Shown in pieces: positions 1-10,967 of a stretch of DNA of 10,967 nt. Position 1 is the first letter of the stretch. Each line of letters opens with the position of its first letter. Origin of the DNA: a virus; IMG/VR virus record IMGVR_UViG_3300045988_159075, positions 1 to 10,967 of that record; one strand, written 5' to 3'. The translations under genes were made by a program, and so were the position numbers. A model generated the notes under the pieces. It searched no databases, was not told the origin of the DNA, and was given only the letters and a program-made list of their open reading frames with translations.

Positions 1-66
1 TATTTCTTAATACCTCATACGGGTAGTTATATTTCTTAATACCTCATACGGGTAGGTAGGGTAGGT
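1..66. repeat. Tandem direct repeats of a 29-bp unit (ATTTCTTAATACCTCATACGGGTAGTTAT), 2 copies, decaying into GGTAG micro-repeats.
   Basis: Copy 1 at 2-30 and copy 2 at 31-59 (period 29). The second copy ends ...CGGGTAGGTAGGGTAGGTAC, i.e. GGTAG x3-4. The same unit makes up the last 80 nt of the window. Confidence 0.9.
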
Positions 67-93
67 ACTATAGGCAAGATTTCCCCACGATAT

Positions 94-107
94 GTTTCAC
101 GTGAAAC
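94..107. repeat. Perfect 14-bp palindrome GTTTCACGTGAAAC at the centre of a larger imperfect palindrome (29-160).
   Basis: GTTTCACGTGAAAC equals its own reverse complement. It sits between the direct repeat units (left) and an inverted repeat unit (right). Confidence 0.9.
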
Positions 108-124
108 AACGCAACTATACACGA

Positions 125-160
125 CTATAGTAACTACCCGTATGAGGTATTAAGAAATAT
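125..160. repeat. Inverted copy of the 29-bp repeat unit plus the CTATAG box.
   Basis: 132-160 AACTACCCGTATGAGGTATTAAGAAATAT is the exact reverse complement of the 29-mer. 125-131 CTATAGT pairs with TACTATAG at 66-73. Confidence 0.9.
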
Positions 161-213
161 TTAAAATATTTTTTTAAAAAATACTTGACGTGTTTTATAT
201 AATAATATATAAT
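161..213 (+). promoter_or_regulatory. Near-consensus sigma-A/sigma-70 early promoter with an upstream A/T-rich UP-like element.
   Basis: -35 TTGACG at 185-190, a 17-nt spacer, then -10 TATAAT at 208-213. 161-184 (TTAAAATATTTTTTTAAAAAATAC) is an A/T tract in UP-element position. The first gene starts 48 nt downstream. Confidence 0.65.
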
Positions 214-260
214 TATAAATGTAGTGAGTTAGTACACTTAATTACTAACAAGGTGTTTAT

Positions 261-518
261 ATGAAAAGAAAAATTATTGAACAGATTAAAAAGATTGAAA
301 AAATGTATAAATGTAAAGTTATTACTATTATTGGTAATGTTTATATTGTATCTAAATCTGAAAGAACATTTGATAGTGATGATATTACTACCAATATTTA
401 TATTGGTGTAGTTATTGTTAAAGATAATGATTACCAATATAAATGTTTATATGCTTATACTTATTTAACTGATTTAAATGATTATAAAGTAAGAAAAGAA
501 ATAACTAAATTGCGTTAA
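261..518 (+). CDS. Hypothetical small early protein (85 aa), beta-rich and basic, in the position of a phi29 p6-like DNA-binding protein.
   Basis: ATG start with AAGGTG Shine-Dalgarno (250-255), TAA stop. First gene behind the early promoter. No recognisable motifs, so the function is assigned by position only. Confidence 0.6.
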   Translation: MKRKIIEQIKKIEKMYKCKVITIIGNVYIVSKSERTFDSDDITTNIYIGVVIVKDNDYQYKCLYAYTYLTDLNDYKVRKEITKLR

Positions 519-585
519 TTTGATTATCACTATATAATGGATTCAAGCGAACCGAACACGCTTAATTGTCGGTAAGGAGTATTAT

Positions 586-957
586 ATGCTTAACTTAGGA
601 AAGTTAAACGGTGGTTTTGATTCACCTTTTGAAAAGGTGGACGGTGAAAAGTTCAAATTTATTGACAGAAAAAAATTTAATGAATTTGGAAAAAAGTTTC
701 TTTTACTTGGAGTTTATCGAAGTGAGGGTAAACTAGGTGTACAGACGGTTTTTATTTGTTCAGAAATTAATGATTCAAGCAAGGGTTTCAGATTCTCTAC
801 AAATGACGTAAGTAAATTTAATGCGATTATGGCTGACAATGACATTATTACAGCCATTAAACAAAAAAAACTAACTATAACATTTGAAAAATATCATTCT
901 GATAAATGGAAAAAAGATTGCATAGGAACAACTTTTGAAGAAATAGAAATATTCTAA
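586..957 (+). CDS. Hypothetical early protein (123 aa), in the position and of the size of a phi29 p5-like ssDNA-binding protein.
   Basis: Perfect Shine-Dalgarno TAAGGAG at 573-579 with 6-nt spacing to ATG 586. TAA stop, followed by an intrinsic terminator. The functional guess rests on synteny (p6-p5-TP-DNAP) and size only. Confidence 0.65.
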   Translation: MLNLGKLNGGFDSPFEKVDGEKFKFIDRKKFNEFGKKFLLLGVYRSEGKLGVQTVFICSEINDSSKGFRFSTNDVSKFNAIMADNDIITAIKQKKLTITFEKYHSDKWKKDCIGTTFEEIEIF

Positions 958-976
958 GTTGTATATTAACTAAAAT

Positions 977-1003
977 AAAACCGTCTATTGATAGACGGTT
1001 TTT
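977..1003 (+). terminator. Rho-independent terminator between the second early gene and the putative terminal-protein gene.
   Basis: AAAACCGTCTA-TTGA-TAGACGGTTTTT: stem 981-987 pairs with 992-998, extended by AAAA/TTTT, followed by a T5 run at 999-1003. Confidence 0.75.
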
Positions 1004-1019
1004 AATATAGGATATAAAA

Positions 1020-1613
1020 ATGATAACAGGTTTTATGTTTTCACCTATTATAAAAGGTATATTAACTGAAAATATTTTTAGGGATACAGATATTAAAATA
1101 ATAAAGAAAATAATTAATAAATCTTTACAAGTTGCAAATAGACGGTTACAAAATATAGAAAAAAGTGGTGTGGTTAGTACTGCATATAAATCGTTAATAA
1201 GTGAACTACCAAAAACATCTAATAAATTTTCAAAATTAAGTATTGGCAAACTTGATTTATCAGATACAACCCAAAGAGTTAAAGCACTTGACACTTATTC
1301 TAAGGCATTATCATTTTTGAATAATAAAACATCTACTGTAAAAGGAAGTAAACAATTTATCAATAAATTAGCAAAGAAAAATAATTTTTCTTTTTCAGAT
1401 ACTAGTAAAATGATTGATGAGATTACTGACGAACGTGTTATTAACGGTAATTTGGTTATTAACAATTGGGATTCTGAACGTATAGCTAATATGATTAGCG
1501 AATATAGCGATAAAGATAATAAATATAATACTGATATTGATAAATATATACGTCAAAAAATAGATGAAAATTTAAGTAAACAAAATGACAACTTTGATAT
1601 TTGGGATTTGTAA
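1020..1613 (+). CDS. Putative terminal protein (197 aa). An alternative start is ATG 1035.
   Basis: The ORF lies immediately upstream of the protein-primed DNA polymerase gene (stop 1611-1613, polymerase ATG 1616), the conserved TP-DNAP arrangement of phi29-like phages. The protein is charged with a Ser/Thr/Tyr-rich C-terminal half. No direct sequence similarity was verified. Confidence 0.45.
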   Translation: MITGFMFSPIIKGILTENIFRDTDIKIIKKIINKSLQVANRRLQNIEKSGVVSTAYKSLISELPKTSNKFSKLSIGKLDLSDTTQRVKALDTYSKALSFLNNKTSTVKGSKQFINKLAKKNNFSFSDTSKMIDEITDERVINGNLVINNWDSERIANMISEYSDKDNKYNTDIDKYIRQKIDENLSKQNDNFDIWDL

Positions 1614-1615
1614 AA

Positions 1616-3685
1616 ATGACTTTTTATAATAAATCTAATTTTTTAGATAGTTTAAAGAAATTTATGGGTAGTATTCCTAAATGCAATTATTGTCAAGATA
1701 AAAAAATATGGTATTGTAATATACCGTGTTCTTTTGATATTGAAACATCGTCATTTTTTAACGAAAAAGGCGAAAAGCAAGCAATTATGTATATATGGCA
1801 ATTTGCTATTTTTGATAATGTTATTATAGGTAGAACATGGAATGATTTTTTTATTTTAATAGATTACTTAGTAAAATTTTACACTCTTAACGCTAATATT
1901 CGTTTAGTGTGTTATGTTCATAATTTATCATACGAATTTCAATTTTTAAGAAAACTTTTTGAATGGTGTGATATTTTCGCTACTGATGAACGAAAACCTT
2001 TATATGCTTGTACAAAAAACGGAATAGAATTTAAATGTTCTTACAGACTTAGCGGTTACTCGTTAGCGGTTTTAGCTAAAAATCTTACACGACATACAAT
2101 TAATAAAAAAGTAGGTGATTTGGATTACTCTTTAATACGTCATTCAGATACATTTATTAGTAATAATGAATTGGAATATTGTATTAACGATGTTCTAATA
2201 GTTACATCATATATTCAAGAGTGTATAGAAGATTATGGCGATATAACAAAAATTCCTTTAACTCAAACTGGAAAAGTTAGAAGATATGTTAGGGAATTAA
2301 CATTAAAAGATAATGATTATAAATATTTGATTTGTAAATTAGAACTAAAAACAATGGAATATTTACAGTTACGAAAAGCGTTTCAAGGCGGTTTTACTCA
2401 TGCTAATCCTATGTACGTATTACAAGAATGTAAAGATGTTACAAGTTTTGATTTTACATCATCATATCCTACTGTTATGACTTCTGAAAAGTTTCCTATG
2501 TCTAGAAGTAAATATATAGGAACTGTTAGCATTGATACATTAAAATATTATATGAAAAATTATTGTTGTTTATTTGATTTAAAATTAACTAATGTTGTAA
2601 GTAAATATAATTTTGAAAATGTAATAAGTTTTTCTAAATGTTTTAGAATTAAAAATTATATTCTTAATAATGGTCGTGTTTTTAGTGCAGAAGAATTATA
2701 TACAACTATAACTGAATTAGATTATGAAGTTATATGTAAATTTTATAATTTTGATAATATTGAGATTCATAATTTATACATATATGAAAAAAATTATTTA
2801 CCTAAATCGTTTATTATGGCGATACTTAAATTATATAACGATAAAACACAATTAAAGGGTGTAAAGGGAAAAGAAATAGAATATTTACATTCTAAAGAAA
2901 TGTTAAATAGTTGCTACGGCATGACAGTTACAGATTTACTTAATGATGAATACATTTATGAAAATGATGAATGGAGTACTAAAGAAAGTAATATAGATAA
3001 TGCTATAGAATATTATAATAAAGATAAAAACAGATTTTTATTTTATCCGTGGGGAGTATGGGTAACTGCTTACGCTAGAAGAAATTTATTTACAGGAATC
3101 TTTGAATGTAAAAATGATTATATTTATGCCGATACCGATAGCATTAAAATCTTTAACGCTGATAAACATAAAAACTACATTAATAATTATAATACAATGA
3201 TTAAAAATAAATTAAAGGCAATGTGTAATCATTATAAAATTGATTTTGATTTATGTAGACCAAAAACTAAATATGGCGTTGAAAAAATTTTAGGTATTTG
3301 GGATTTTGACGGTAAATATAAAATATTTAAGTCATTAGGCGCAAAACGATATATGATTTATACAGATGATAATATATTAAGTATTACCGTTAGCGGAGTT
3401 AATAAAAAATTTGCAGTTCCTTATCTGATGAAAAAATATAATAATGATATTGAAAAAATATTTAGTGTTTTTGATGATTCGTTAGTATTTCCTAAAGGTA
3501 CTAACGGAAAAAAAGTATTAACATATATTGATTCAGAACAAAAAGGAATAGTTAAAGATTATTTAGGAAATGTTAAAGAATATGATGAAAAATCATCTAT
3601 TTTTATGGAAGATACAGAATATAATCTAAATATTGCTTGTGAATATTTAGATTTTATATTAAAATTAAATAAAAGGTGTGTATAA
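1616..3685 (+). CDS. Protein-primed family B DNA polymerase (689 aa from ATG 1616; the ORF track extends to TTG 1601).
   Basis: Exo I SFDIETS (D-x-E), Exo III YCINDVLIV, YxGG as FQGGF, motif A FDFTSSYPTV (Dx2SxYP), motif B KEMLNSCYGMT (Kx3NSxYG), motif C YADTDSI (YxDTDS), and KxY as GAKRYMIY. These all match the phi29 polymerase motif order. The true start is probably ATG 1616, just after the upstream gene's stop. Confidence 0.93.
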   Translation: MTFYNKSNFLDSLKKFMGSIPKCNYCQDKKIWYCNIPCSFDIETSSFFNEKGEKQAIMYIWQFAIFDNVIIGRTWNDFFILIDYLVKFYTLNANIRLVCYVHNLSYEFQFLRKLFEWCDIFATDERKPLYACTKNGIEFKCSYRLSGYSLAVLAKNLTRHTINKKVGDLDYSLIRHSDTFISNNELEYCINDVLIVTSYIQECIEDYGDITKIPLTQTGKVRRYVRELTLKDNDYKYLICKLELKTMEYLQLRKAFQGGFTHANPMYVLQECKDVTSFDFTSSYPTVMTSEKFPMSRSKYIGTVSIDTLKYYMKNYCCLFDLKLTNVVSKYNFENVISFSKCFRIKNYILNNGRVFSAEELYTTITELDYEVICKFYNFDNIEIHNLYIYEKNYLPKSFIMAILKLYNDKTQLKGVKGKEIEYLHSKEMLNSCYGMTVTDLLNDEYIYENDEWSTKESNIDNAIEYYNKDKNRFLFYPWGVWVTAYARRNLFTGIFECKNDYIYADTDSIKIFNADKHKNYINNYNTMIKNKLKAMCNHYKIDFDLCRPKTKYGVEKILGIWDFDGKYKIFKSLGAKRYMIYTDDNILSITVSGVNKKFAVPYLMKKYNNDIEKIFSVFDDSLVFPKGTNGKKVLTYIDSEQKGIVKDYLGNVKEYDEKSSIFMEDTEYNLNIACEYLDFILKLNKRCV

Positions 3686-3689
3686 TTAT

Positions 3690-3881
3690 ATGAATAAGAA
3701 TAAAACTAGGGTATGTATTTTTATCGACAAAAAACTAAATGAACGGTTCAAGGAAAAATATCCATTGATGTTTTCAAGATATGTTGAAAAATGTATAAAA
3801 GACGCATTATGTGATAAAAGTAAAGTGTTGGATTCTGTAGAAAAAAAAGAACGGTTAAATATTTTTAATATAGGTTTATAA
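3690..3881 (+). CDS. Small ribbon-helix-helix-like DNA-binding protein (63 aa), a putative transcriptional regulator.
   Basis: N-terminal beta-strand (TRVCIFIDKK) followed by two helices (LNERFKEKYP / SRYVEKCIKDAL), typical of the CopG/Arc/MetJ fold. ATG 3690 lies behind AAAGGTG; the track's GTG 3678 start is less likely. TAA stop abuts the next ATG. Confidence 0.5.
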   Translation: MNKNKTRVCIFIDKKLNERFKEKYPLMFSRYVEKCIKDALCDKSKVLDSVEKKERLNIFNIGL

Positions 3882-4082
3882 ATGATTAAAAAGTTTGAAG
3901 TTTGTAGAATTAAGTCGTTTATATATCTTATTGAAGTTTATAATACAAATACTAGAAAAATAAAATATATTACCTCTATAGGTAAAAAAATTAAAGTTGA
4001 TTATGAACTTAATCCAGAAAGTAATAATATTATTAAATGTTATGATAATCTAAAGGAAGCGTTATCTGATTATGAAAAATAA
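3882..4082 (+). CDS. Hypothetical protein (66 aa), translationally coupled on both sides.
   Basis: Its ATG sits immediately after the upstream TAA (TAAATG). Its 3' end overlaps the ATPase start by 11 nt. No recognisable motifs. Confidence 0.45.
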   Translation: MIKKFEVCRIKSFIYLIEVYNTNTRKIKYITSIGKKIKVDYELNPESNNIIKCYDNLKEALSDYEK

Positions 4083-5169
4083 ATATTATAGTCTTTCAAA
4101 TATATTAAAAGAAAATTGTGATTATAATTTAATCATCGGTGAGAGGTCTAACGGTAAAACATACGCTTGTTTAATCCACGCTATAGAGGATTATATTAAA
4201 AATGGTAATGCAAGCGCATATATCAGACGTTGGAAAGAAGATATACAAGGAAAACGTGCTGAAACTATATTTAGTAGTGTAAATGAAAACAATGTTATAT
4301 CACAAATTACTAACGGTGAATACGATAATGTTATTTATTATAGGGGAAAATTTTTTCTTGCGCTATATGACAATGAAACCCATAAAATGCAATCAAGTAA
4401 AAAGCCCTTTTGTTATGCGTTTTCATTATCTGATGTAGAACATGATAAAAGCACATCATATCCGACAATAAAAAATATAATTTTTGATGAATTTATAACA
4501 CGTCAATATTATTTACCTAATGAATTTGTTATTTTTATGAATGTTTTAAGTACTATTATTAGAGATAAAAAAGATGTTAAAATTTTTATGTTGGGTAATA
4601 CTGTTAATAAATTTTGCCCTTATTTTGATGAAATGGGATTGATAAATATTCAAACGCAAAAACAGGGAACTATTGATGTTTATAGATATGGTGAAAATAC
4701 ATTAACTCTAGCAGTTGAATATTGCGGAACAGTAAACAAGAAAAAAGATAGTAACAAATATTTCGCTTTTAACAATCCTAGATTGAATATGATAACTAAC
4801 GGTGCTTGGGAATTAGCAATTTATCCCCATTTATCCCAAGGTCAAAAGATAAATAATAAAGATATTATTTTTCATTTTAATATATCTTTTGCCAATAAAA
4901 ATATTCAAGGTGATATTGTCGAAAATAATGACGGTTATTTTTTATTTTTTCATTATAGAACTAGTGAAATTAAAGATAATGAACTTTTATACACTCTTAA
5001 TTATACAACAAAACCGAATGTACGAAAATCATTTCTTTATAAAACAGATAAAATAGACATTAATATTTGCCGACTATTTCAGATAAGAAAAGTTTTTTAT
5101 CAATCAAATGATATCGGCGAAATTATTAAAAATTACTTGGGTGAATGTGTAAAAAATAATATAATGTGA
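4072..5169 (+). CDS. DNA encapsidation ATPase (phi29 gp16-like), 365 aa.
   Basis: Walker A IIGERSNGKTYA. Blocks YIRRWKEDI, IIFDEFITRQYYLPNEF and KIFMLGNTVNKFCPYF parallel the remembered phi29 gp16 segments VIGARGIGKSYA / YVRRYKPEL / IVFDEFIRE...IPNE / CICLSNAVSVVNPYF. AAAGGAAG Shine-Dalgarno. TGA stop. Confidence 0.85.
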   Translation: MKNKYYSLSNILKENCDYNLIIGERSNGKTYACLIHAIEDYIKNGNASAYIRRWKEDIQGKRAETIFSSVNENNVISQITNGEYDNVIYYRGKFFLALYDNETHKMQSSKKPFCYAFSLSDVEHDKSTSYPTIKNIIFDEFITRQYYLPNEFVIFMNVLSTIIRDKKDVKIFMLGNTVNKFCPYFDEMGLINIQTQKQGTIDVYRYGENTLTLAVEYCGTVNKKKDSNKYFAFNNPRLNMITNGAWELAIYPHLSQGQKINNKDIIFHFNISFANKNIQGDIVENNDGYFLFFHYRTSEIKDNELLYTLNYTTKPNVRKSFLYKTDKIDINICRLFQIRKVFYQSNDIGEIIKNYLGECVKNNIM

Positions 5170-5192
5170 TATAATTATGAATGGAGTAAAAT

Positions 5193-6257
5193 ATGAAAAA
5201 ACAAATTAATTATGATAACGCAAAAAAATACTTATTTGAAAAAGATATTTTCATTAATAATTATATTGCGTATATGTTTGACAGAACCCAAAAAATGTTT
5301 AAATATGAAAATTTACCCGAATCAATACCGCAAAGAATACTTGAATATATGTTACAGAAAAATGGCAATGTCTTTATTACCAAGGTTAACGGTAAATTAT
5401 ATGCTTTTAATGGTGGTTTGGGTGGTGTACCTAACGAATATTACGAACCGACAATTTACACGGTAACAAATCCATATCTTGAAATATCTGAAAATTATAA
5501 AATTGATATTGACGGCATATTGTTTAGAAATGATTCTATGATGATAGGATTATTGCCGATATTTACAAAATCCGCCTTTATGAATTGCGATTGTGAAATT
5601 ACATTGAATATGTTATCAATTCTTTTTAGAGTTCAATATATGCTGACTGCTAGCGATGATAAAAGTAAAACAAGTGCCGAAATGTTTATGCAGAAGTTAA
5701 AGAATGGTGATATGTCTGTTGTTGCAGATTCACAATTTTTTGAAGGTGTAAAACTTCAATCTTATAACGGAAGTGAGCATATTATTGAGCAGATGATAGG
5801 ATTATCTCAATACATCAAGGCTAGCGCATTGAACGATATAGGATTAAACGCTAATTTTATTATGAAAAAAGAGCGGTTAATCACAAGTGAAATAAATGTT
5901 AATGAAAGTGCATTACTACCGTTTATTGAAAATATGCTTGAAGAGCGAAAAAAAGCGATTGAAAAAATAAATGCCATGTTTGGAACAGATATAAAAGTTG
6001 AATTATCGTGTGTATGGAATGAGCAAGTAAAAACACATGAGGAAAATATTATTGAAGAAAATAATAAAATTGAAGATTCAGAAAAGACTGATGAAGATTC
6101 AGAAAAGACTGATGAAGATTCAGAAAAGACTGATGAAGATTCAGAAAAGACTGATGAAGATTCAGAAAAGACTGATGAAGATTCAGAAAAGACTGATGAA
6201 GATTCAGAAAAGACTGATGAAGATTCTAAACGAAAAGGCGGTAAAAATGACATATAA
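5193..6257 (+). CDS. Portal/head-tail connector protein (phi29 gp10-like) with a C-terminal 7x DSEKTDE acidic tandem repeat.
   Basis: YENLPESIPQRILEYMLQKNGNVF...NGGLGG and NANFIMKKERLITSEINVNESAL parallel remembered phi29 gp10 WENLPPTINPSFLEKS...CNGAL and [21 protein letters not shown]. GGAG Shine-Dalgarno 6 nt before the ATG. The acidic C-terminus resembles that of phi29 gp10. Confidence 0.8.
   Translation: MKKQINYDNAKKYLFEKDIFINNYIAYMFDRTQKMFKYENLPESIPQRILEYMLQKNGNVFITKVNGKLYAFNGGLGGVPNEYYEPTIYTVTNPYLEISENYKIDIDGILFRNDSMMIGLLPIFTKSAFMNCDCEITLNMLSILFRVQYMLTASDDKSKTSAEMFMQKLKNGDMSVVADSQFFEGVKLQSYNGSEHIIEQMIGLSQYIKASALNDIGLNANFIMKKERLITSEINVNESALLPFIENMLEERKKAIEKINAMFGTDIKVELSCVWNEQVKTHEENIIEENNKIEDSEKTDEDSEKTDEDSEKTDEDSEKTDEDSEKTDEDSEKTDEDSEKTDEDSKRKGGKNDI
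6072..6226. repeat. Perfect 21-bp tandem repeat (GAAGATTCAGAAAAGACTGAT), about 7.4 copies, in frame within the portal gene's 3' end.
   Basis: Copies start at 6072, 6093, 6114, 6135, 6156, 6177 and 6198, with a partial copy at 6219-6226. No mismatches. The repeat encodes (E)DSEKTD heptads and leaves all three forward frames and the reverse strand open. Confidence 0.95.
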
Positions 6258-6834
6258 TAATTTATTTTCAAATACTGATGTTATATCAGCACTAAAAAAT
6301 GCTGATAATGTAAAATTTAATGAAATATTTGGTGAAAATTATGATTCAGTCATATTAGACGGCTATATTAAGTTTACTATGGGTGAATATGAATGCACTG
6401 ATAAAACAATTGAAAGTTTCAATAAACAAGGTATAGAAAATATTTGTAAATGGCTATGGCTAAAATATTATGACAGTTGGAAATCTTTGTTAAAAAGTTT
6501 AGCGGTTAGTTATGAAAATTCAGATAGTGAAAATGAAACTATTGAACATACTCAAAATATGCAGTCAACATCAGTATCAACTAGTACAGATACAAATAAA
6601 GTTTTTGCCTATGATAGCGAAACTGCTAGTGATAATACTTTGAATGATACAACTAATGATAATAACGGTACTAATAATTTAACCGAAAAAACAACAAGAA
6701 ATAAAACAGGATATAATTACGGTTCGTCATTATTTGATTTGATTAAAAAATACAATGATTTTCAAATTGAAAATACTTTCGTTGACATTATTTCAAAAGA
6801 TGTTATAATGTTTTTATGCCATACTATAATTTAG
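6247..6834 (+). CDS. Hypothetical morphogenesis-module protein (195 aa), possibly a collar, adaptor or scaffold protein.
   Basis: ATG 6247 preceded by AAAGGCGG. The portion of the track ORF upstream (6037-6246) is an out-of-frame read through the portal repeats. The C-terminal half is Ser/Thr/Asn/Asp-rich and low-complexity. TAG stop. It sits after the portal gene, where phi29 has the lower collar. Confidence 0.6.
   Translation: MTYNNLFSNTDVISALKNADNVKFNEIFGENYDSVILDGYIKFTMGEYECTDKTIESFNKQGIENICKWLWLKYYDSWKSLLKSLAVSYENSDSENETIEHTQNMQSTSVSTSTDTNKVFAYDSETASDNTLNDTTNDNNGTNNLTEKTTRNKTGYNYGSSLFDLIKKYNDFQIENTFVDIISKDVIMFLCHTII
6782..6809 (+). promoter_or_regulatory. Perfect-consensus sigma-A promoter with extended -10, the likely late (capsid/tail operon) promoter.
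   Basis: -35 TTGACA at 6782-6787, a 16-nt spacer, then TGtTATAAT at 6801-6809. It lies in the 3' end of the 195-aa ORF, 38 nt upstream of the small-peptide gene's start. Confidence 0.6.
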
Positions 6835-6846
6835 GAGATAAAAATC

Positions 6847-7029
6847 ATGGATGAAAAGAAAAAAACACAGATTAAAAACGCATTTACTACATTTGTCAAG
6901 GCGTTGATTCCCCCTATAATTGCGCTAATATCCGCTATCCTCACAACTATTGTAAGCGGTGATAATATAGCAGTTGCTACTTCAGTTGGAGCAGTTGCAG
7001 GATACGTCGCTAATAACGTTGTAGGATAA
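6847..7029 (+). CDS. Small hydrophobic glycine-zipper membrane peptide (60 aa), holin-like candidate.
   Basis: Strong Shine-Dalgarno AGGAGA 8 nt upstream of the ATG. Basic N-terminus MDEKKKTQIKNAF, then a hydrophobic segment, then a Gly/Ala/Val-rich segment (VATSVGAVAGYVANNVVG). TAA stop. Confidence 0.6.
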   Translation: MDEKKKTQIKNAFTTFVKALIPPIIALISAILTTIVSGDNIAVATSVGAVAGYVANNVVG

Positions 7030-7032
7030 ATT

Positions 7033-7197
7033 ATGGACAAATTATTCAAGACATTATTGAAAGTAGGAACAACAGTTGCAGCAGTTGTAATATCTAACGC
7101 TTGCGGAGTTGATAAAAACATGGCTATTGCAATCGGTTCTGTTGTAGGTTCTACCGTTAGCGGTACGTTTGATTTATCTATTAAAGATGGAAAGTAA
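7033..7197 (+). CDS. Paralogous small hydrophobic glycine-zipper peptide (54 aa).
   Basis: Same architecture (MDK..., two short hydrophobic Gly/Ala/Val segments AAVVISNACGV / AIAIGSVVGSTVSG). Same reading frame as the upstream peptide, one stop plus one codon apart. AGGAT Shine-Dalgarno. Confidence 0.55.
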   Translation: MDKLFKTLLKVGTTVAAVVISNACGVDKNMAIAIGSVVGSTVSGTFDLSIKDGK

Positions 7198-7202
7198 ATA
7201 AA

Positions 7203-8384
7203 ATGAAAGTTGAACAGATACATACAATTGTAAATGAAATAACAAAAGAATTGCTTGGCGAAACCGCTGTAGTAAATGAAGATTTGTCAAATATTGTTGA
7301 CATAGGCCAGACCTTATTTGATTCAACAAGCGTTGACAATTATGTTAAAACACTTTGCGACCATATCGGCAAAGTTGTTTTTGTTAACCGCTCATACGCT
7401 GGTAATGTTCCTAGCGTTTTAATGGACGGTTGGGAATACGGTTCGGTACTTGAAAAAATAAGTGCAGATATTCCCGAAGCAAAAGAAAATGAAACGTGGG
7501 AACTTACGAATGGTCAAAGTTACGATGTTAACGTGTTCTACAAGCCGACAGTTGCAACAAAGTTCTTCAATAAGAAAGTAACTTTTGAAATACCAATGTC
7601 ATTTACAGAAAAACAGGTTAAAGGTTCATTCAGTTCTGCTGAACAGATGAACGGTTTTCTGTCTATGATTCAGAACGCCGTTGAAAAGTCAATGACTGTT
7701 AAAATTGATTCTCTTATTATGAGAACAATCAACAATATGACGGCACAGACGGTTGTCAACGCTTTTGGAGTAGTTGACGCTGATACAGGCTATTCTGAAA
7801 AAAACAGTGTAAGGGCGGTTAACCTTTTGAAACAGTACAATGACAAGTTCGGCGGTGCATTGACCGCTGAAAAATGTTTGACAGACCCTGCATTTATCAG
7901 ATTTGCAACTTACACAATTTCATTGTATAGGGATAGACTTAGTAAAATATCTAACCTTTTCAATATTGGCGGTAAGTCAAGATTTACTGCAAATGATATG
8001 TTGCATACAGTTTTACTTGCGGATTTCAAGGCAAGCGCAACGGCGTATCTTGAAAGTGATACATTTCACAATGACCTTGTAAAGTTGCCTAATTCTGAAA
8101 CTGTACCGTATTGGCAGGGTAGCGGAACAAGTTACGGATTTGCGGATGTTTCTTCTATTGATGTTAAGACGCCGAACCTTAAGGCCGAAGGAACTGTTGA
8201 TGTGAAACTTAGCGGTATTTTAGGTGTTATGTTTGACCGGGACGCTTTGGGCGTTGCTAATCTTGACAGAAGAGTAACAACAAACTACAATGCAAAAGCA
8301 GAATTTTACAACAATTATTATAAATTTGATGCAGGTTATTTTAACGACACAAACGAAAACTTTATTGTATTCTTTGTAGCCTAA
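7203..8384 (+). CDS. Major capsid protein, phi29 gp8-like (HK97 fold), 393 aa, without a C-terminal BIG2 domain.
   Basis: DNYVKTLCDHIGKVVFV matches remembered gp8 NDFITSLVDRIGLVVIR. FSSAEQMNGFLSMIQNAVEKSMTVKIDSL matches [27 protein letters not shown]. Shorter than phi29 gp8 (448 aa). Followed by a strong terminator. Confidence 0.8.
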   Translation: MKVEQIHTIVNEITKELLGETAVVNEDLSNIVDIGQTLFDSTSVDNYVKTLCDHIGKVVFVNRSYAGNVPSVLMDGWEYGSVLEKISADIPEAKENETWELTNGQSYDVNVFYKPTVATKFFNKKVTFEIPMSFTEKQVKGSFSSAEQMNGFLSMIQNAVEKSMTVKIDSLIMRTINNMTAQTVVNAFGVVDADTGYSEKNSVRAVNLLKQYNDKFGGALTAEKCLTDPAFIRFATYTISLYRDRLSKISNLFNIGGKSRFTANDMLHTVLLADFKASATAYLESDTFHNDLVKLPNSETVPYWQGSGTSYGFADVSSIDVKTPNLKAEGTVDVKLSGILGVMFDRDALGVANLDRRVTTNYNAKAEFYNNYYKFDAGYFNDTNENFIVFFVA

Positions 8385-8404
8385 ATCAAGTTTATTAATT
8401 TGTA

Positions 8405-8434
8405 AGGGTTAGGTTTTCCTAACCCTATTTTTTT
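8405..8434 (+). terminator. Rho-independent terminator after the capsid gene.
   Basis: AGGGTTAGG (8405-8413), loop TTTT, CCTAACCCT (8418-8426), then a T7 run at 8428-8434. Confidence 0.85.
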
Positions 8435-8444
8435 AGGTATTAAA

Positions 8445-8876
8445 ATGAAAATTAATTTTTATAATTATACAGGTAAAAAAAATGTTATTCAAAAAACATT
8501 AGATAATCCGACGGAAAAAGATATTTTATTAAAAAATGATTTTTCAGAAATTGAAACATCAATTTTATTAAAAGATAATATATCTTTTAATTATTTGGAA
8601 TTACCTACATTAAAAAGATTTTATTTTATAAAAAACAAAACTATTTTAAGAACTGATTTAATACGAATTGATTTATCATTAGATGTATTAATGACTTATA
8701 AAGAAAATATATTAACATCAAAAGCAGTCATAATTGAAAGTGAAAATCCTAATATTAATGATATGACACATTCAACAAACAAAACAACAGAAGTAATAAA
8801 ATACGTATTTCCAAATAATCCGATAGATTACAATGGAAATATATCAATGGCTTGTATAAATGGGAGCATAGAATAA
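8445..8876 (+). CDS. Hypothetical protein (143 aa), possibly a neck or tail accessory protein.
   Basis: ATG 8445 just after the terminator. Its TAA stop overlaps the start of the tail gene (TAATG coupling). Confidence 0.55.
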   Translation: MKINFYNYTGKKNVIQKTLDNPTEKDILLKNDFSEIETSILLKDNISFNYLELPTLKRFYFIKNKTILRTDLIRIDLSLDVLMTYKENILTSKAVIIESENPNINDMTHSTNKTTEVIKYVFPNNPIDYNGNISMACINGSIE

Positions 8877-10897
8877 TGGCTAGAATACTTAGTATTAAAG
8901 TTGCTGATGATATTTTTAAAAATGGTACTGACGCATATATTAATTATAGTAGAAACGGATTTACAGGAAATATATCTACATCAAAAGAGGATACACTACC
9001 ATTATCAGCTTCTTTTGTACGTAATGACTATACACAAAATACTATCCCCGATTTAGGAATAGTCGTTAAAAACACTGATATAATCACAGATATATCAAAA
9101 ATGATTCTTAAAGGTGAGAATATCAATATTGAAAATATTACAACCGAGGATAAAATAACATCAACAGGAAGACATAGATTATTATTACATATACCCGAAA
9201 ATATAATTGTAAATCAAAATGCAACTATTACAATAAGCGGTGATTTTATTCAATATCCTGTTGAAAACCCTAAAATAACACCAACATATAATTTAACTAA
9301 TTGTTCAATATCACCACAACCAACAGAAATAAATAACGGTGATGAAATAACTTTTACAGTGTCTAAAAATAATGATACGGATATTTTTACAAACATACCT
9401 AATATTAACGGAAAAATTGACGGTGTAACATTTTCAAATGATTTTACATTAGATACAAATGGTAACTATATACTAACTAAACAATTTAATTTTACTGACG
9501 CTAACAATACTGAAATAACTATAAACGCCATTGCAAACACTATAGAAATTACACCGACAATAACAATTGAAGGTTCAACAGTCAAAATCCGCCCTAATAT
9601 TAGCGGCGGTGAATATGTAACTACATTAAAAAACGGTGTTGAATATTTAATTGAAACTGAAAGTGATAATCTAAACGGATATTTTTTTAAATCTATTCCT
9701 AAAATAATAGTTAAAATAAACGGTGTTTCAGAAACTATTAATATGTTAGACCAATATCCCGAAGCAACAAATAAAACTAAATATTATTTAGTGAAAACTT
9801 TTAATTTTAAATCTGAAAATGATACTGTAGATGTTATTGCGATAGCAACAGATACAATTATTATAGAACCAATATATAATATAGACCATTGTACAATAAA
9901 CCCAAAACCATTATTTATAAAACCTAAACAGGAATATACATTTAATGTAAAAGCCGATGAAGGATTTATATTTAAAACTACACCATATTTAAACCTTAAA
10001 TTAGACGGTTTAGAAAGTACAGTTACATTTGATAAAGTAGATGATTACACATTTACATTAACATATACATTTAATTTTATTTCTACAGGTTCAACAAGTA
10101 TAGAATTTAATTTATTCGCTAAATCTGAAAACAATCCGATAGCCCAAAAATACGGCTTTATAACATTATATAGCCCGACCACAAAAGAACTAATAGCAAT
10201 ATCAAGAAAAAGACTTCTAAAAGTTGCTAGTTCTAATGAAGGTTACGCGGATATTGATTTAGGGCAATATATTACTTCATTAAAAAGAATATTTTGTAAA
10301 ATTCCAACAGATGAATCTGAAAATGTTGTATTAGGTATTTTTAACACGGGTGTTTCTTGTAAATCAATACCAAATGACAATATAGAATTATCTTTCGGTG
10401 ATGTACAATGTAACGGTTATTATAATAATTCCCAAGATTTGACAGATACATCAATACAGATTTTATTACCATTTTGCAATGTAATTGATATTGAAACTAT
10501 TAATATTAATTCTAAAATTACTGTTAAAATGAATGTTAATGTTCTAAGTGGTAACGCAACAGTGCATATATATTCAGATGACATTTTAATAAAAACAGTT
10601 GATACAAATATTTCAATTAAAATACCATATACATTATATGGTCAAGTATCACAAGAATTAAGTGTACATAACCAAAGACAAAATGACAATGCGATATTTG
10701 AAATAATACCACAGATTATTGTATATGAAAAAATAAACAATAATAGTCATAATGTATATAATACTTCTAAATATGATTTAATTTCAAATGAAAAAGGCTT
10801 TTTCAGAATTGAGCATATAGAAATGAATATGAACATGAAAAGCGACGAATACGAATTAATAATAAATGAATTGAAAAACGGTTGTTATATTTCTTAA
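8876..10897 (+). CDS. Large tail/receptor-binding structural protein (673 aa from ATG 8876) with tandem Ig-like modules.
   Basis: ATG 8876 preceded by GGGAG at 9-nt spacing; the track's TTG 8852 start is an extension. Two clear ~90-aa repeats (ITPTYNLTNCSISPQP...EITFTV... and IEPIYNIDHCTINPKP...EYTFNV...) plus a third degenerate module. It is the only large ORF left for tail functions, and its TAA stop lies inside the terminal repeat array. Confidence 0.7.
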   Translation: MARILSIKVADDIFKNGTDAYINYSRNGFTGNISTSKEDTLPLSASFVRNDYTQNTIPDLGIVVKNTDIITDISKMILKGENINIENITTEDKITSTGRHRLLLHIPENIIVNQNATITISGDFIQYPVENPKITPTYNLTNCSISPQPTEINNGDEITFTVSKNNDTDIFTNIPNINGKIDGVTFSNDFTLDTNGNYILTKQFNFTDANNTEITINAIANTIEITPTITIEGSTVKIRPNISGGEYVTTLKNGVEYLIETESDNLNGYFFKSIPKIIVKINGVSETINMLDQYPEATNKTKYYLVKTFNFKSENDTVDVIAIATDTIIIEPIYNIDHCTINPKPLFIKPKQEYTFNVKADEGFIFKTTPYLNLKLDGLESTVTFDKVDDYTFTLTYTFNFISTGSTSIEFNLFAKSENNPIAQKYGFITLYSPTTKELIAISRKRLLKVASSNEGYADIDLGQYITSLKRIFCKIPTDESENVVLGIFNTGVSCKSIPNDNIELSFGDVQCNGYYNNSQDLTDTSIQILLPFCNVIDIETININSKITVKMNVNVLSGNATVHIYSDDILIKTVDTNISIKIPYTLYGQVSQELSVHNQRQNDNAIFEIIPQIIVYEKINNNSHNVYNTSKYDLISNEKGFFRIEHIEMNMNMKSDEYELIINELKNGCYIS

Positions 10898-10967
10898 TAC
10901 CTCATACGGGTAGTTATATTTCTTAATACCTCATACGGGTAGTTATATTTCTTAATACCTCATACGG
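10888..10967. repeat. 2.76 tandem copies of the same 29-bp unit; the last 51 nt are identical to window bases 1-51.
   Basis: Copies start at 10888, 10917 and 10946 (the last truncated by the window end). The array overlaps the tail gene's stop codon at 10895-10897. Confidence 0.9.

Follow-up and report, generated by a model that had tools for sequence, protein, structure and literature searches.

In this work we analysed a stretch of 10,967 nucleotides (nt) of viral DNA, positions 1 to 10,967 of the IMG/VR record IMGVR_UViG_3300045988_159075 (hereafter the window), and focused on the large palindrome at its left end, the centre of which is a perfect copy of parS, the chromosomal site of the bacterial partition protein ParB (Spo0J). 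The window represents a small gut phage, a phi29-like (Astrithrvirus-like) podophage of approximately 11 kb, with a GC content of 27%, whose genes all lie on the plus strand between 261 and 10897. Its products include a gp16-type packaging ATPase, a connector and a major capsid protein of the phi29 type (Pfam and PHROG searches), and a family B DNA polymerase of the protein-primed class, whose sole PDB match is the phi29 DNA polymerase (E = 6e-9). We consider it probable that a linear, protein-primed genome was here assembled as a false circle, and that a parS site within each inverted terminal repeat (ITR) recruits the ParB of the host, as in phi29. The coordinates of the features are collected in Table 1.

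The palindrome, described in a first-pass annotation of the window as spanning 29-160, was found again by direct reading and by a repeat search. A 29-nt unit, TATTTCTTAATACCTCATACGGGTAGTTA, at 1-29 is the reverse complement of 131-159 at 29 of 29 positions, an inverted repeat far beyond chance, and a near copy of the unit at 30-58 matches the reverse complement of 131-159 at 29 of 30 positions. Further inward, TACTATAG at 66-73 lies opposite CTATAGTA at 125-132, followed by a segment without complementarity (74-93, 20 nt, against 108-124, 17 nt). At the centre, GTTTCACGTGAAAC at 94-107 forms a perfect 14-nt palindrome, which the flanking T and A extend to a perfect palindrome of 16 nt (93-108). 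In shuffled versions of the window, 0.04 matches to the 14-mer with at most two mismatches are expected, against one observed. Both the unit and the sequence adjoining it are indeed present in the two arms, as had been proposed, but in the left arm they are separated: the unit ends in GTA instead of TTA and an extra copy of GGGTAGGTA is inserted, such that 50-67 consists of this 9-nt motif twice over (TRF: period 9, 2.0 copies, 100% match). The large palindrome is thus made of three parts, namely an inverted repeat within the ITR (59-73 and 125-139), the unit at 131-159 facing sequence of a right-end array joined at 1-49, and the central parS site.

Independent assemblies of the same phage were found by exact-protein look-up. 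One of them (L004; ENA ERZ951205, MEGAHIT k127, sample SRR2223102) is 100% identical to the window, starts exactly at position 50 (GGGTAGGTAGGGTAGGTACTATAG...) with no unit sequence upstream, and reads uninterrupted through 100/101. Its other end breaks within a 21-nt coding repeat, after approximately 110 nt of repeat; this is a typical repeat break, and since the 5' end shows nothing similar, the start at 50 is not one. A second contig (L012; ERZ946847, sample SRR2250359, with the same contig in three samples) is 100% identical to the window over 4,755 nt and covers the right end, where the last gene is followed by three units, CTATAG, TCGTGTATAGTTGCGTT, GTTTCACGTGAAAC, ATATCGTGGGGAAATCTTGC, CTATAG and TACCTACCCTACCTACCC, at which the contig stops. 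The last 111 nt of this contig are the exact reverse complement of window positions 50-160. The start of the first contig and the end of the second thus delimit a 111-bp ITR, and as judged from these contigs the genome is linear, with a length of about 11,006 bp provided that the copy number of the 21-nt repeat is as in the window, and with physical ends 5'-GGGTAGGTAGGGTAGGTA... on each strand (window 50).

The ends of related contigs fall at the homologous GGGTAGG/GGTAGG position. In L010 (83% polymerase identity) a 124-nt ITR starts with GGGTAGGTAGGGTATGTA and its 3' terminus is directly followed by the Illumina adapter sequence AGATCGGAAGAGCACACGTCTGAAC, and in L135 (65% polymerase identity) the adapter AGATCGGAAGAGCGTCGTGTAGGG is fused to the terminus. 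Where adapter directly adjoins one fixed base, numerous library fragments must have ended at that base, which is thus a physical DNA end. The contigs L008 and L230, assembled independently of each other, terminate at GGTAGGGTAGTA-CTATAG, and L133 and L136 stop at the place equivalent to window 50. The adapter-fused termini (L010:10668-10692 and L135:11000-11039), useful as end markers, are at the same time contamination in deposited assemblies.

These ends bear directly on the first-pass proposal that 100/101 is the circularised join of two termini, with imperfect ITRs sharing just the terminal GTGAAAC. The contig does look circular and is palindromic around 100/101, and the phage is of the protein-primed type. 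However, seven independent contigs (L004, L005, L008, L010, L012, L133 and L230) read through the centre and none ends there; all contigs that reach the centre end at least 44 nt outside it, and the ends map to window 50 and its reverse complement, with adapter fused to them in two relatives. Moreover, the central 16-mer occupies no fixed position relative to a terminus, lying 108 nt from the end in L010 and, as a 14-nt core, 66 nt from it in L136, and the same motif is found one to five times at internal sites of distant phages. As far as assemblies can tell, a join at the palindrome centre is hence extremely improbable. What had been expected of the phage in general, that is a linear, phi29-type and presumably protein-primed genome with ITRs, is borne out by the class of its polymerase and by the mapped repeats, whereas three details attached to the join have to be revised. 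The true ends are not near 100/101; the terminus does not lack a terminal reiteration, as it begins with GGG and carries GGGTAGGTA twice; and the left end is not about 85 bp upstream of the early promoter, the -35 box being 135 bp from it.

Cultured relatives start with GGGTTATCC and GGGATATCC. A TCCCCA box, located 33-38 nt from the terminus of the window phage, is found 32-37 nt from the end in Acinetobacter phage Phanie (L001) and in L136, and 28-33 nt from it in L135, while phage DU_PP_III has CCCCA at about the same distance. The presence of this box near the end in all of them ties the termini of the window group to those of cultured phages. It is kept in lineages whose ITRs are otherwise unalignable, including cultured phages of the Astrithrvirus group, and is a candidate for a conserved origin element used by the terminal protein or the polymerase.

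The circular look of the window was suspected not to be biological, and the mapped ends agree with this. The first and last 22 nt of the window are the same, and so are the first and last 51 nt, all within the tandem array. Any 'circular' flag would therefore come from a tandem repeat, and a pipeline with direct terminal repeats as its criterion would misjudge this linear genome as circular. In the linear genome (L012) the third unit is followed by CTATAG-TCGTG... and not by GGTAGGGTAGG; the third array copy forms the inner edge of the right ITR, the remaining, outermost 81 nt of which are absent from the window. The left terminus is instead preceded in the window by ...TATTTCTTAATACCTCATAC, which is unit sequence and belongs beside the ITR at the right end. 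Positions 29-49 of the outer left arm consequently lie outside the left genome end, and the genome begins with the nine bases 50-58, which complete the 29-nt arm.

We infer that the 49/50 join arose from a 3' end that folded back on itself, as it has the sequence expected from fold-back and extension. The 3' end ...CTATAG-TACCTACCC-TACCTACCC would fold back, its last nine bases would pair with GGGTAGTTA of a unit, and the end would then be extended. The contig L005 of a relative (MEGAHIT k141) folds back at either end (L005:1-320 and L005:10640-10894), around an asymmetric parS core. One pair of arms is 130 nt long with no mismatch and the other 103 nt long with one; the fold-backs look like self-primed extension of 3' ends or a chimeric library artefact. 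Two other origins of the join were considered and rejected. A false De Bruijn join via a short inverted repeat would require shared words far longer than the 6-8 nt present, which are well below any assembler k; with words this short the join is not assembler-made and needs real read-through molecules or chimeric reads. Simple end-to-end ligation would yield ...CCTACCC|GGGTAGG..., unlike the window. Since most assemblies stop at the terminus, fold-backs are minor species; their reads could nevertheless extend the dead end of an assembly, after which the 111-bp ITR common to both ends would let the graph walk close a false circle.

The sub-terminal repeats themselves vary. Their copy number is unequal at the two ends, with one copy at the left (131-159) and three at the right (10888-10974, in virtual coordinates), and the unit is specific to the lineage, with 29 nt in the window and 46 nt in L008 and L009 (L008:1-140). 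Each unit holds an inverted near-copy (GGGTAGTTA) of the terminal 9-mer.

Alternatively, the genome could be truly circular or have covalently closed hairpin ends, with the region serving as an iteron origin or as a telomere-resolution site. The direct 29-nt repeats with their inverted copy are iteron-like, the contig ends match, and the L005 contig ends in fold-backs as a hairpin telomere would. On the other hand, domain searches found no Rep, protelomerase or recombinase gene in the window, all relatives are linear with ITRs, adapter is fused at termini, and the matching contig ends are tandem array only. We regard this explanation as very improbable. In its particular forms, a hairpin telomere was rejected because contigs end at the terminus with adapter and protelomerase is not encoded; a telomere-resolution site because it requires a perfect long palindrome, and 74-93 and 108-124 are not complementary; and the iteron origin of a circular replicon because, despite the direct 29-nt repeats, a Rep gene was not found and the genome is linear. 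Telomere-resolution palindromes are known from telRL of N15-type phages and from poxvirus concatemer junctions. The window resembles them in having a large palindrome where assemblies run through the genome end, and relatives in their fold-back contig ends, but it differs in the missing protelomerase, in the imperfect palindrome and in that contigs end 44 nt outside it.

The same fold-backs could also speak for a structural DNA element, in which the single strand of the ITR folds (59-73 with 125-139, plus a mini-hairpin at 94-107), the 3' end primes its own extension, and the fold-backs are intermediates of replication or of ITR repair; the element would then be kept for its folding rather than for protein binding. 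Consistent with this, a stem is predicted on both strands of 50-160, the arms co-vary between lineages (GTATGGTAGGTA-CTATAG being paired with CTATAG-TAACTACCATAC in L133 and L005), the 49/50 join is exactly as expected from self-primed extension, and the L005 fold-backs measure 130 nt and 103 nt. The predicted stability of the single-stranded hairpin is however only modest, at -13.7 kcal/mol for the plus strand (z = -2.2) and -10.1 kcal/mol for the minus strand (z = -0.9). In addition, L010 and L136 keep parS without the flanking inverted repeat, the fold-backs are minor and could arise during library preparation, and folding leaves the exact parS sequence at the centre unexplained. A purely structural role thus appears quite unlikely. 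The fallback offered in the annotation, real internal structure, holds in so far as the centre is a conserved internal element of the ITR, with the sequence of a perfect parS.

The published consensus of chromosomal parS is TGTTNCACGTGAAACA, and several species use exactly TGTTTCACGTGAAACA (PMC7022226). Positions 93-108 of the window match this consensus at 16 of 16 positions, and of the ten matches listed, out of 28, in a full-text literature search with the 14-mer, nine plainly dealt with ParB, with parS or with the Noc site, which resembles parS. The window, L005, L008, L010 and L133 all have the identical 16-mer, despite flanks that differ in sequence and in length, and its distance from the end varies (44 nt in the window). 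More distant relatives (L176, L187/L188 and L200, with 39-52% polymerase identity) have the site near each end, and in L176 and L187/L188 this is so despite ITR surroundings that are not the same at one end as at the other. Among 80 family members sampled from metagenome-assembled genome (MAG) bins, 14 carry it with no more than one mismatch. Even more remote phi29-like contigs of 12-15 kb, about 35 of them in IMG/VR, contain one to five exact copies, always as ATGTTTCACGTGAAACAT. Of 101 sites in 33 such contigs, 27 of IMG/VR and 6 of MAG-bin origin, 78 are intergenic, with approximately 13% of the DNA being non-coding, although many of these contigs are close kin, so that the site counts are not independent events. 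To judge from this conservation, the site is under selection and more than a chance match.

A scan of metagenomes for the pattern returned mostly unrelated parS-bearing contigs and one useful contig, L230. In the relatives, one or two extra TGAAACA half-sites in direct orientation lie immediately inside parS (e.g. TGTTTCACGTGAAACAATGAAACAATGAAACA), at L005:158-181, at L010:117-132 and in the reverse complement of the L008 and L133 3' ends; the corresponding stretch of the window has decayed to ACGCAAC. The distant contigs have a GC content of 36-41%, with sites for example at 574, 4490, 5569, 5751 and 7063 in L048 and at 5349, 7648, 9220 and 10174 in L023. Some sites of the distant phages closely precede a -35 box (by 2 nt) or a ribosome-binding site (by 3 nt), a hint that they also serve in regulation.

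It could be argued that the 16-mer binds a protein other than ParB, such as an origin-accessory factor or a transcription regulator of the phage or of the host that acts on the ITR like NFI and Oct-1 in adenovirus, and that its identity to parS is coincidence or convergence. The site does lie in the replication origin region, beside TGAAACA half-sites in relatives, the sites of the distant phages are mostly intergenic and often next to promoters or ribosome-binding sites, and small open reading frames (ORFs) of the window with no assigned function are candidate binders. Against this, the exact 16/16 consensus is conserved across bacterial phyla and in phages with a GC content from 27% to 48% and with polymerases only 22-54% identical, a small protein common to those distant phages and the window was not found, and phi29 provides a direct precedent for the use of ParB/Spo0J. 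We consider a non-ParB protein rather unlikely. No ParB or helix-turn-helix domain was detected in any ORF of the window, so that the binding protein would be that of the host.

The use of parS and Spo0J by phi29 was reportedly described by Meijer et al. in 2005 (EMBO J 24:3647; cited in PMC2731898). In our scan of the phi29 genome, four TGTTTCACGTGGAACA sites were found at 10445, 15903, 17243 and 18760, each with one mismatch and all outside the 6-bp ITR. According to PMC2731898, five parS sites have been reported in phi29, which act via the host Spo0J and help to trap the infecting genome in the spore or forespore. The principle that a virulent protein-primed phage borrows the partition protein of its host is hence already known. 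Like phi29 and Nf, the window phage appears as a virulent protein-primed podophage with a parS of the host chromosomal type and without its own parB. It differs from phi29, whose sites are scattered, by one perfect site per end, built into the 111-bp ITR; furthermore it belongs to an Astrithrvirus-like lineage, and its host may not form spores. Clustered Spo0A boxes as in phi29 were not seen in the window, which has a single TGTCGAA within a gene, as expected by chance. New here are the uncultured gut lineage with its 27% GC and one perfect site within each ITR, such that both ends are always equipped, and the wide spread of the parS trait among small gut podophages.

By analogy with phi29, we infer binding of a host ParB at the window site and a benefit of it to the phage. 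Dimers of the host ParB (Spo0J) would nucleate at both ITR sites, and the phage DNA thus bound would be tied to the segregation apparatus of the host and carried, for example, into daughter cells or spores. While lysis is delayed, the phage genome would thereby be inherited more readily. In vitro, ParB-CTP clamps slide off DNA with free ends and accumulate only where the ends are closed or blocked; a parS as near to an end as 44 bp is therefore expected to function only with the exit blocked, by the terminal protein or by origin proteins. More tentatively, terminal proteins might act as roadblocks from which the clamps can slide inward only, so that they could coat the whole 11-kb genome and turn it into a partitioned mini-chromosome, a carrier state through division or sporulation; we put this forward as a possibility on the doubtful side.

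Several points weigh against the recruitment of host ParB to the ends of a linear genome. A parS located 44 bp from an end would load ParB poorly unless the terminal protein blocks that end. The site is missing from the close family members L135, L140 and L141, so that replication does not depend on parS. The hosts of the closest cultured relatives are Gram-negative, and spore entrapment in the manner of phi29 may not apply. The host may also be without ParB, or its ParB may not recognise this consensus. MAG bins give inconsistent taxa: 80 phage-sized contigs of the family (L143-L222) were binned with unrelated taxa, including Ruminococcus, Muribaculaceae, Treponema and Methanobrevibacter among others, and bin membership is therefore no evidence of the host. 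As to the termini, they rest on contig ends and adapter fusions rather than on read pile-ups, and the window and L005 hold sequence beyond the terminus, so that some molecules or library artefacts read past the end.

Many of the MAG-bin contigs carry exact inverted repeats at their termini, with lengths of 141, 119, 99 or 77 nt. Such values coincide with common MEGAHIT/SPAdes k-mer sizes (k141 and k119 appear in several contig names), and the real ITRs are thus probably longer and truncated in the assemblies.

The host range of the cultured phages offers a further comparison. Cultured astrithrviruses of Salmonella, Pectobacterium, Enterobacter and Acinetobacter have no parS site, and Clostridium phage HM2 has one perfect site. 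The Enterobacteriaceae are not known to have a chromosomal ParABS system, which fits the absence of the site from phages with enterobacterial hosts. The polymerases of the cultured astrithrviruses are 42-49% identical to that of the window, and the gene order is equal in the three compared (astrithr, Phanie and DU_PP_III). Phanie and DU_PP_III (polymerases 46-47% identical) share with the window phage a linear genome with ITRs, of 171 bp and 219 bp, that start with GGG and hold the TCCCCA/CCCCA box about 32 nt from the end. They differ from it in having no parS even when two mismatches are allowed, neither the 29-nt array nor the CTATAG-flanked inverted repeat, and a GC content of 37-40% versus 27%.

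Compared with the bacterial chromosomal parS, the centromere of the ParABS system, the 16-bp palindrome TGTTTCACGTGAAACA of the window is identical, but it sits on 11-kb linear viral DNA, 44 bp from a presumably protein-capped end and not near a chromosomal origin, and has no parA or parB gene nearby. In the auxiliary origin of the adenovirus ITR, NFI and Oct-1 sites adjoin the core origin, and these host factors stimulate the initiation of replication. The window phage has in common with adenovirus a protein-primed linear genome, the ITR of which has a palindromic site for a host protein tens of bp from the end; in contrast to adenovirus, the window site corresponds to that of a partition protein, with at most a putative function in replication.

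The revised ends correct the genome map: the window phage, and probably other 'circular' contigs of its family, is linear with ends at GGGTAGG, the apparent circle being a tandem repeat plus rare read-through molecules. This matters for completeness calls and for rebuilding or engineering such very small phages. The parS sites extend the parS/Spo0J story of phi29, known from Bacillus phages only, to gut podophages. If the host ParB does bind, these would be lytic phages with built-in inheritance by their hosts, which would bear on the stable persistence of virulent phages in the gut, and they would constitute a natural test of ParB clamp behaviour on short linear DNA with protein-blocked ends. 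As approximately one in six members of this large gut-phage family carry parS, hijacking of ParB could be a common, unrecognised persistence strategy of small virulent phages.

Table 1. Location, strand and basis of assignment of the features in the window
Feature	Position	Strand	Basis or remark
Right-end array sequence joined to the left terminus: full unit (1-29) and first 20 nt of a unit (30-49)	1..49	+	outside the left genome end
Left inverted terminal repeat, 111 bp; physical left end at 50	50..160	+	L012 end, L004 start
Terminal reiteration, GGGTAGGTA twice, starting GGG; candidate substrate for sliding-back/jumping-back after protein-primed initiation	50..67	+	TRF; function putative
Outer arm of 15-nt inverted repeat within the ITR, GGGTAGGTA-CTATAG	59..73	+	partner 125-139; stem predicted on both strands
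TCCCCA box, candidate origin element	82..87	+	comparison with relatives
Perfect 16-bp parS TGTTTCACGTGAAACA, palindrome centre, 44-59 nt from each genome end	93..108	.	16/16 versus consensus
Inner arm of the inverted repeat within the ITR, CTATAG-TAACTACCC	125..139	+	partner 59-73
29-nt unit, one inverted copy bounding the left ITR on its inner side	131..159	-	repeat search
Early promoter-like site TTGACG-17-TATAAT	185..213	+	11/12 matches; conserved in relatives
197-aa ORF just upstream of the polymerase, terminal-protein candidate by position only	1020..1613	+	synteny
Protein-primed family B DNA polymerase	1601..3685	+	Pfam DNA_pol_B_2 (PF03175) E = 2e-15; PHROG 1907 E = 2e-65
Right-end 29-nt array (2.76 unit copies within the window; 3 at the true right end)	10888..10967	+	repeat search, L012

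The putative covalent terminal protein at the 5' ends has a positional candidate in the 197-aa ORF next to the polymerase gene. This ORF is weakly homologous to syntenic ORFs of about 200 aa (astrithr, 26% identity, E = 1e-6; Phanie, 25%, E = 6e-5) and has no match in Pfam, PDB or NCBIfam. Near-identical DNA was not found among cultured phages; in IMG/VR a search with the polymerase found no relative, and the 29-nt unit gave no match. An exact look-up of the 681-aa tail protein gave no record, and its matches are confined to astrithrviruses.

No endolysin, holin or prohead RNA (pRNA) was recognised in the window, including 8852-10897, by Pfam, PHROGs, NCBIfam or Rfam, and the Rfam scan gave neither pRNA nor another RNA family. 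Cultured astrithrviruses have an endolysin gene and two to four leftward genes at the right end, which the window phage is without. The 21-nt coding repeat at which assemblies break lies in the C-terminal part of the connector ORF (5193-6257), where 7.4 perfect tandem copies (6071-6226) encode EDSEKTD repeats. It splits most assemblies of the window phage into two contigs, and both L004 and L012 end in it. The relatives carry a degenerate acidic version of the EDSEKTD repeat.

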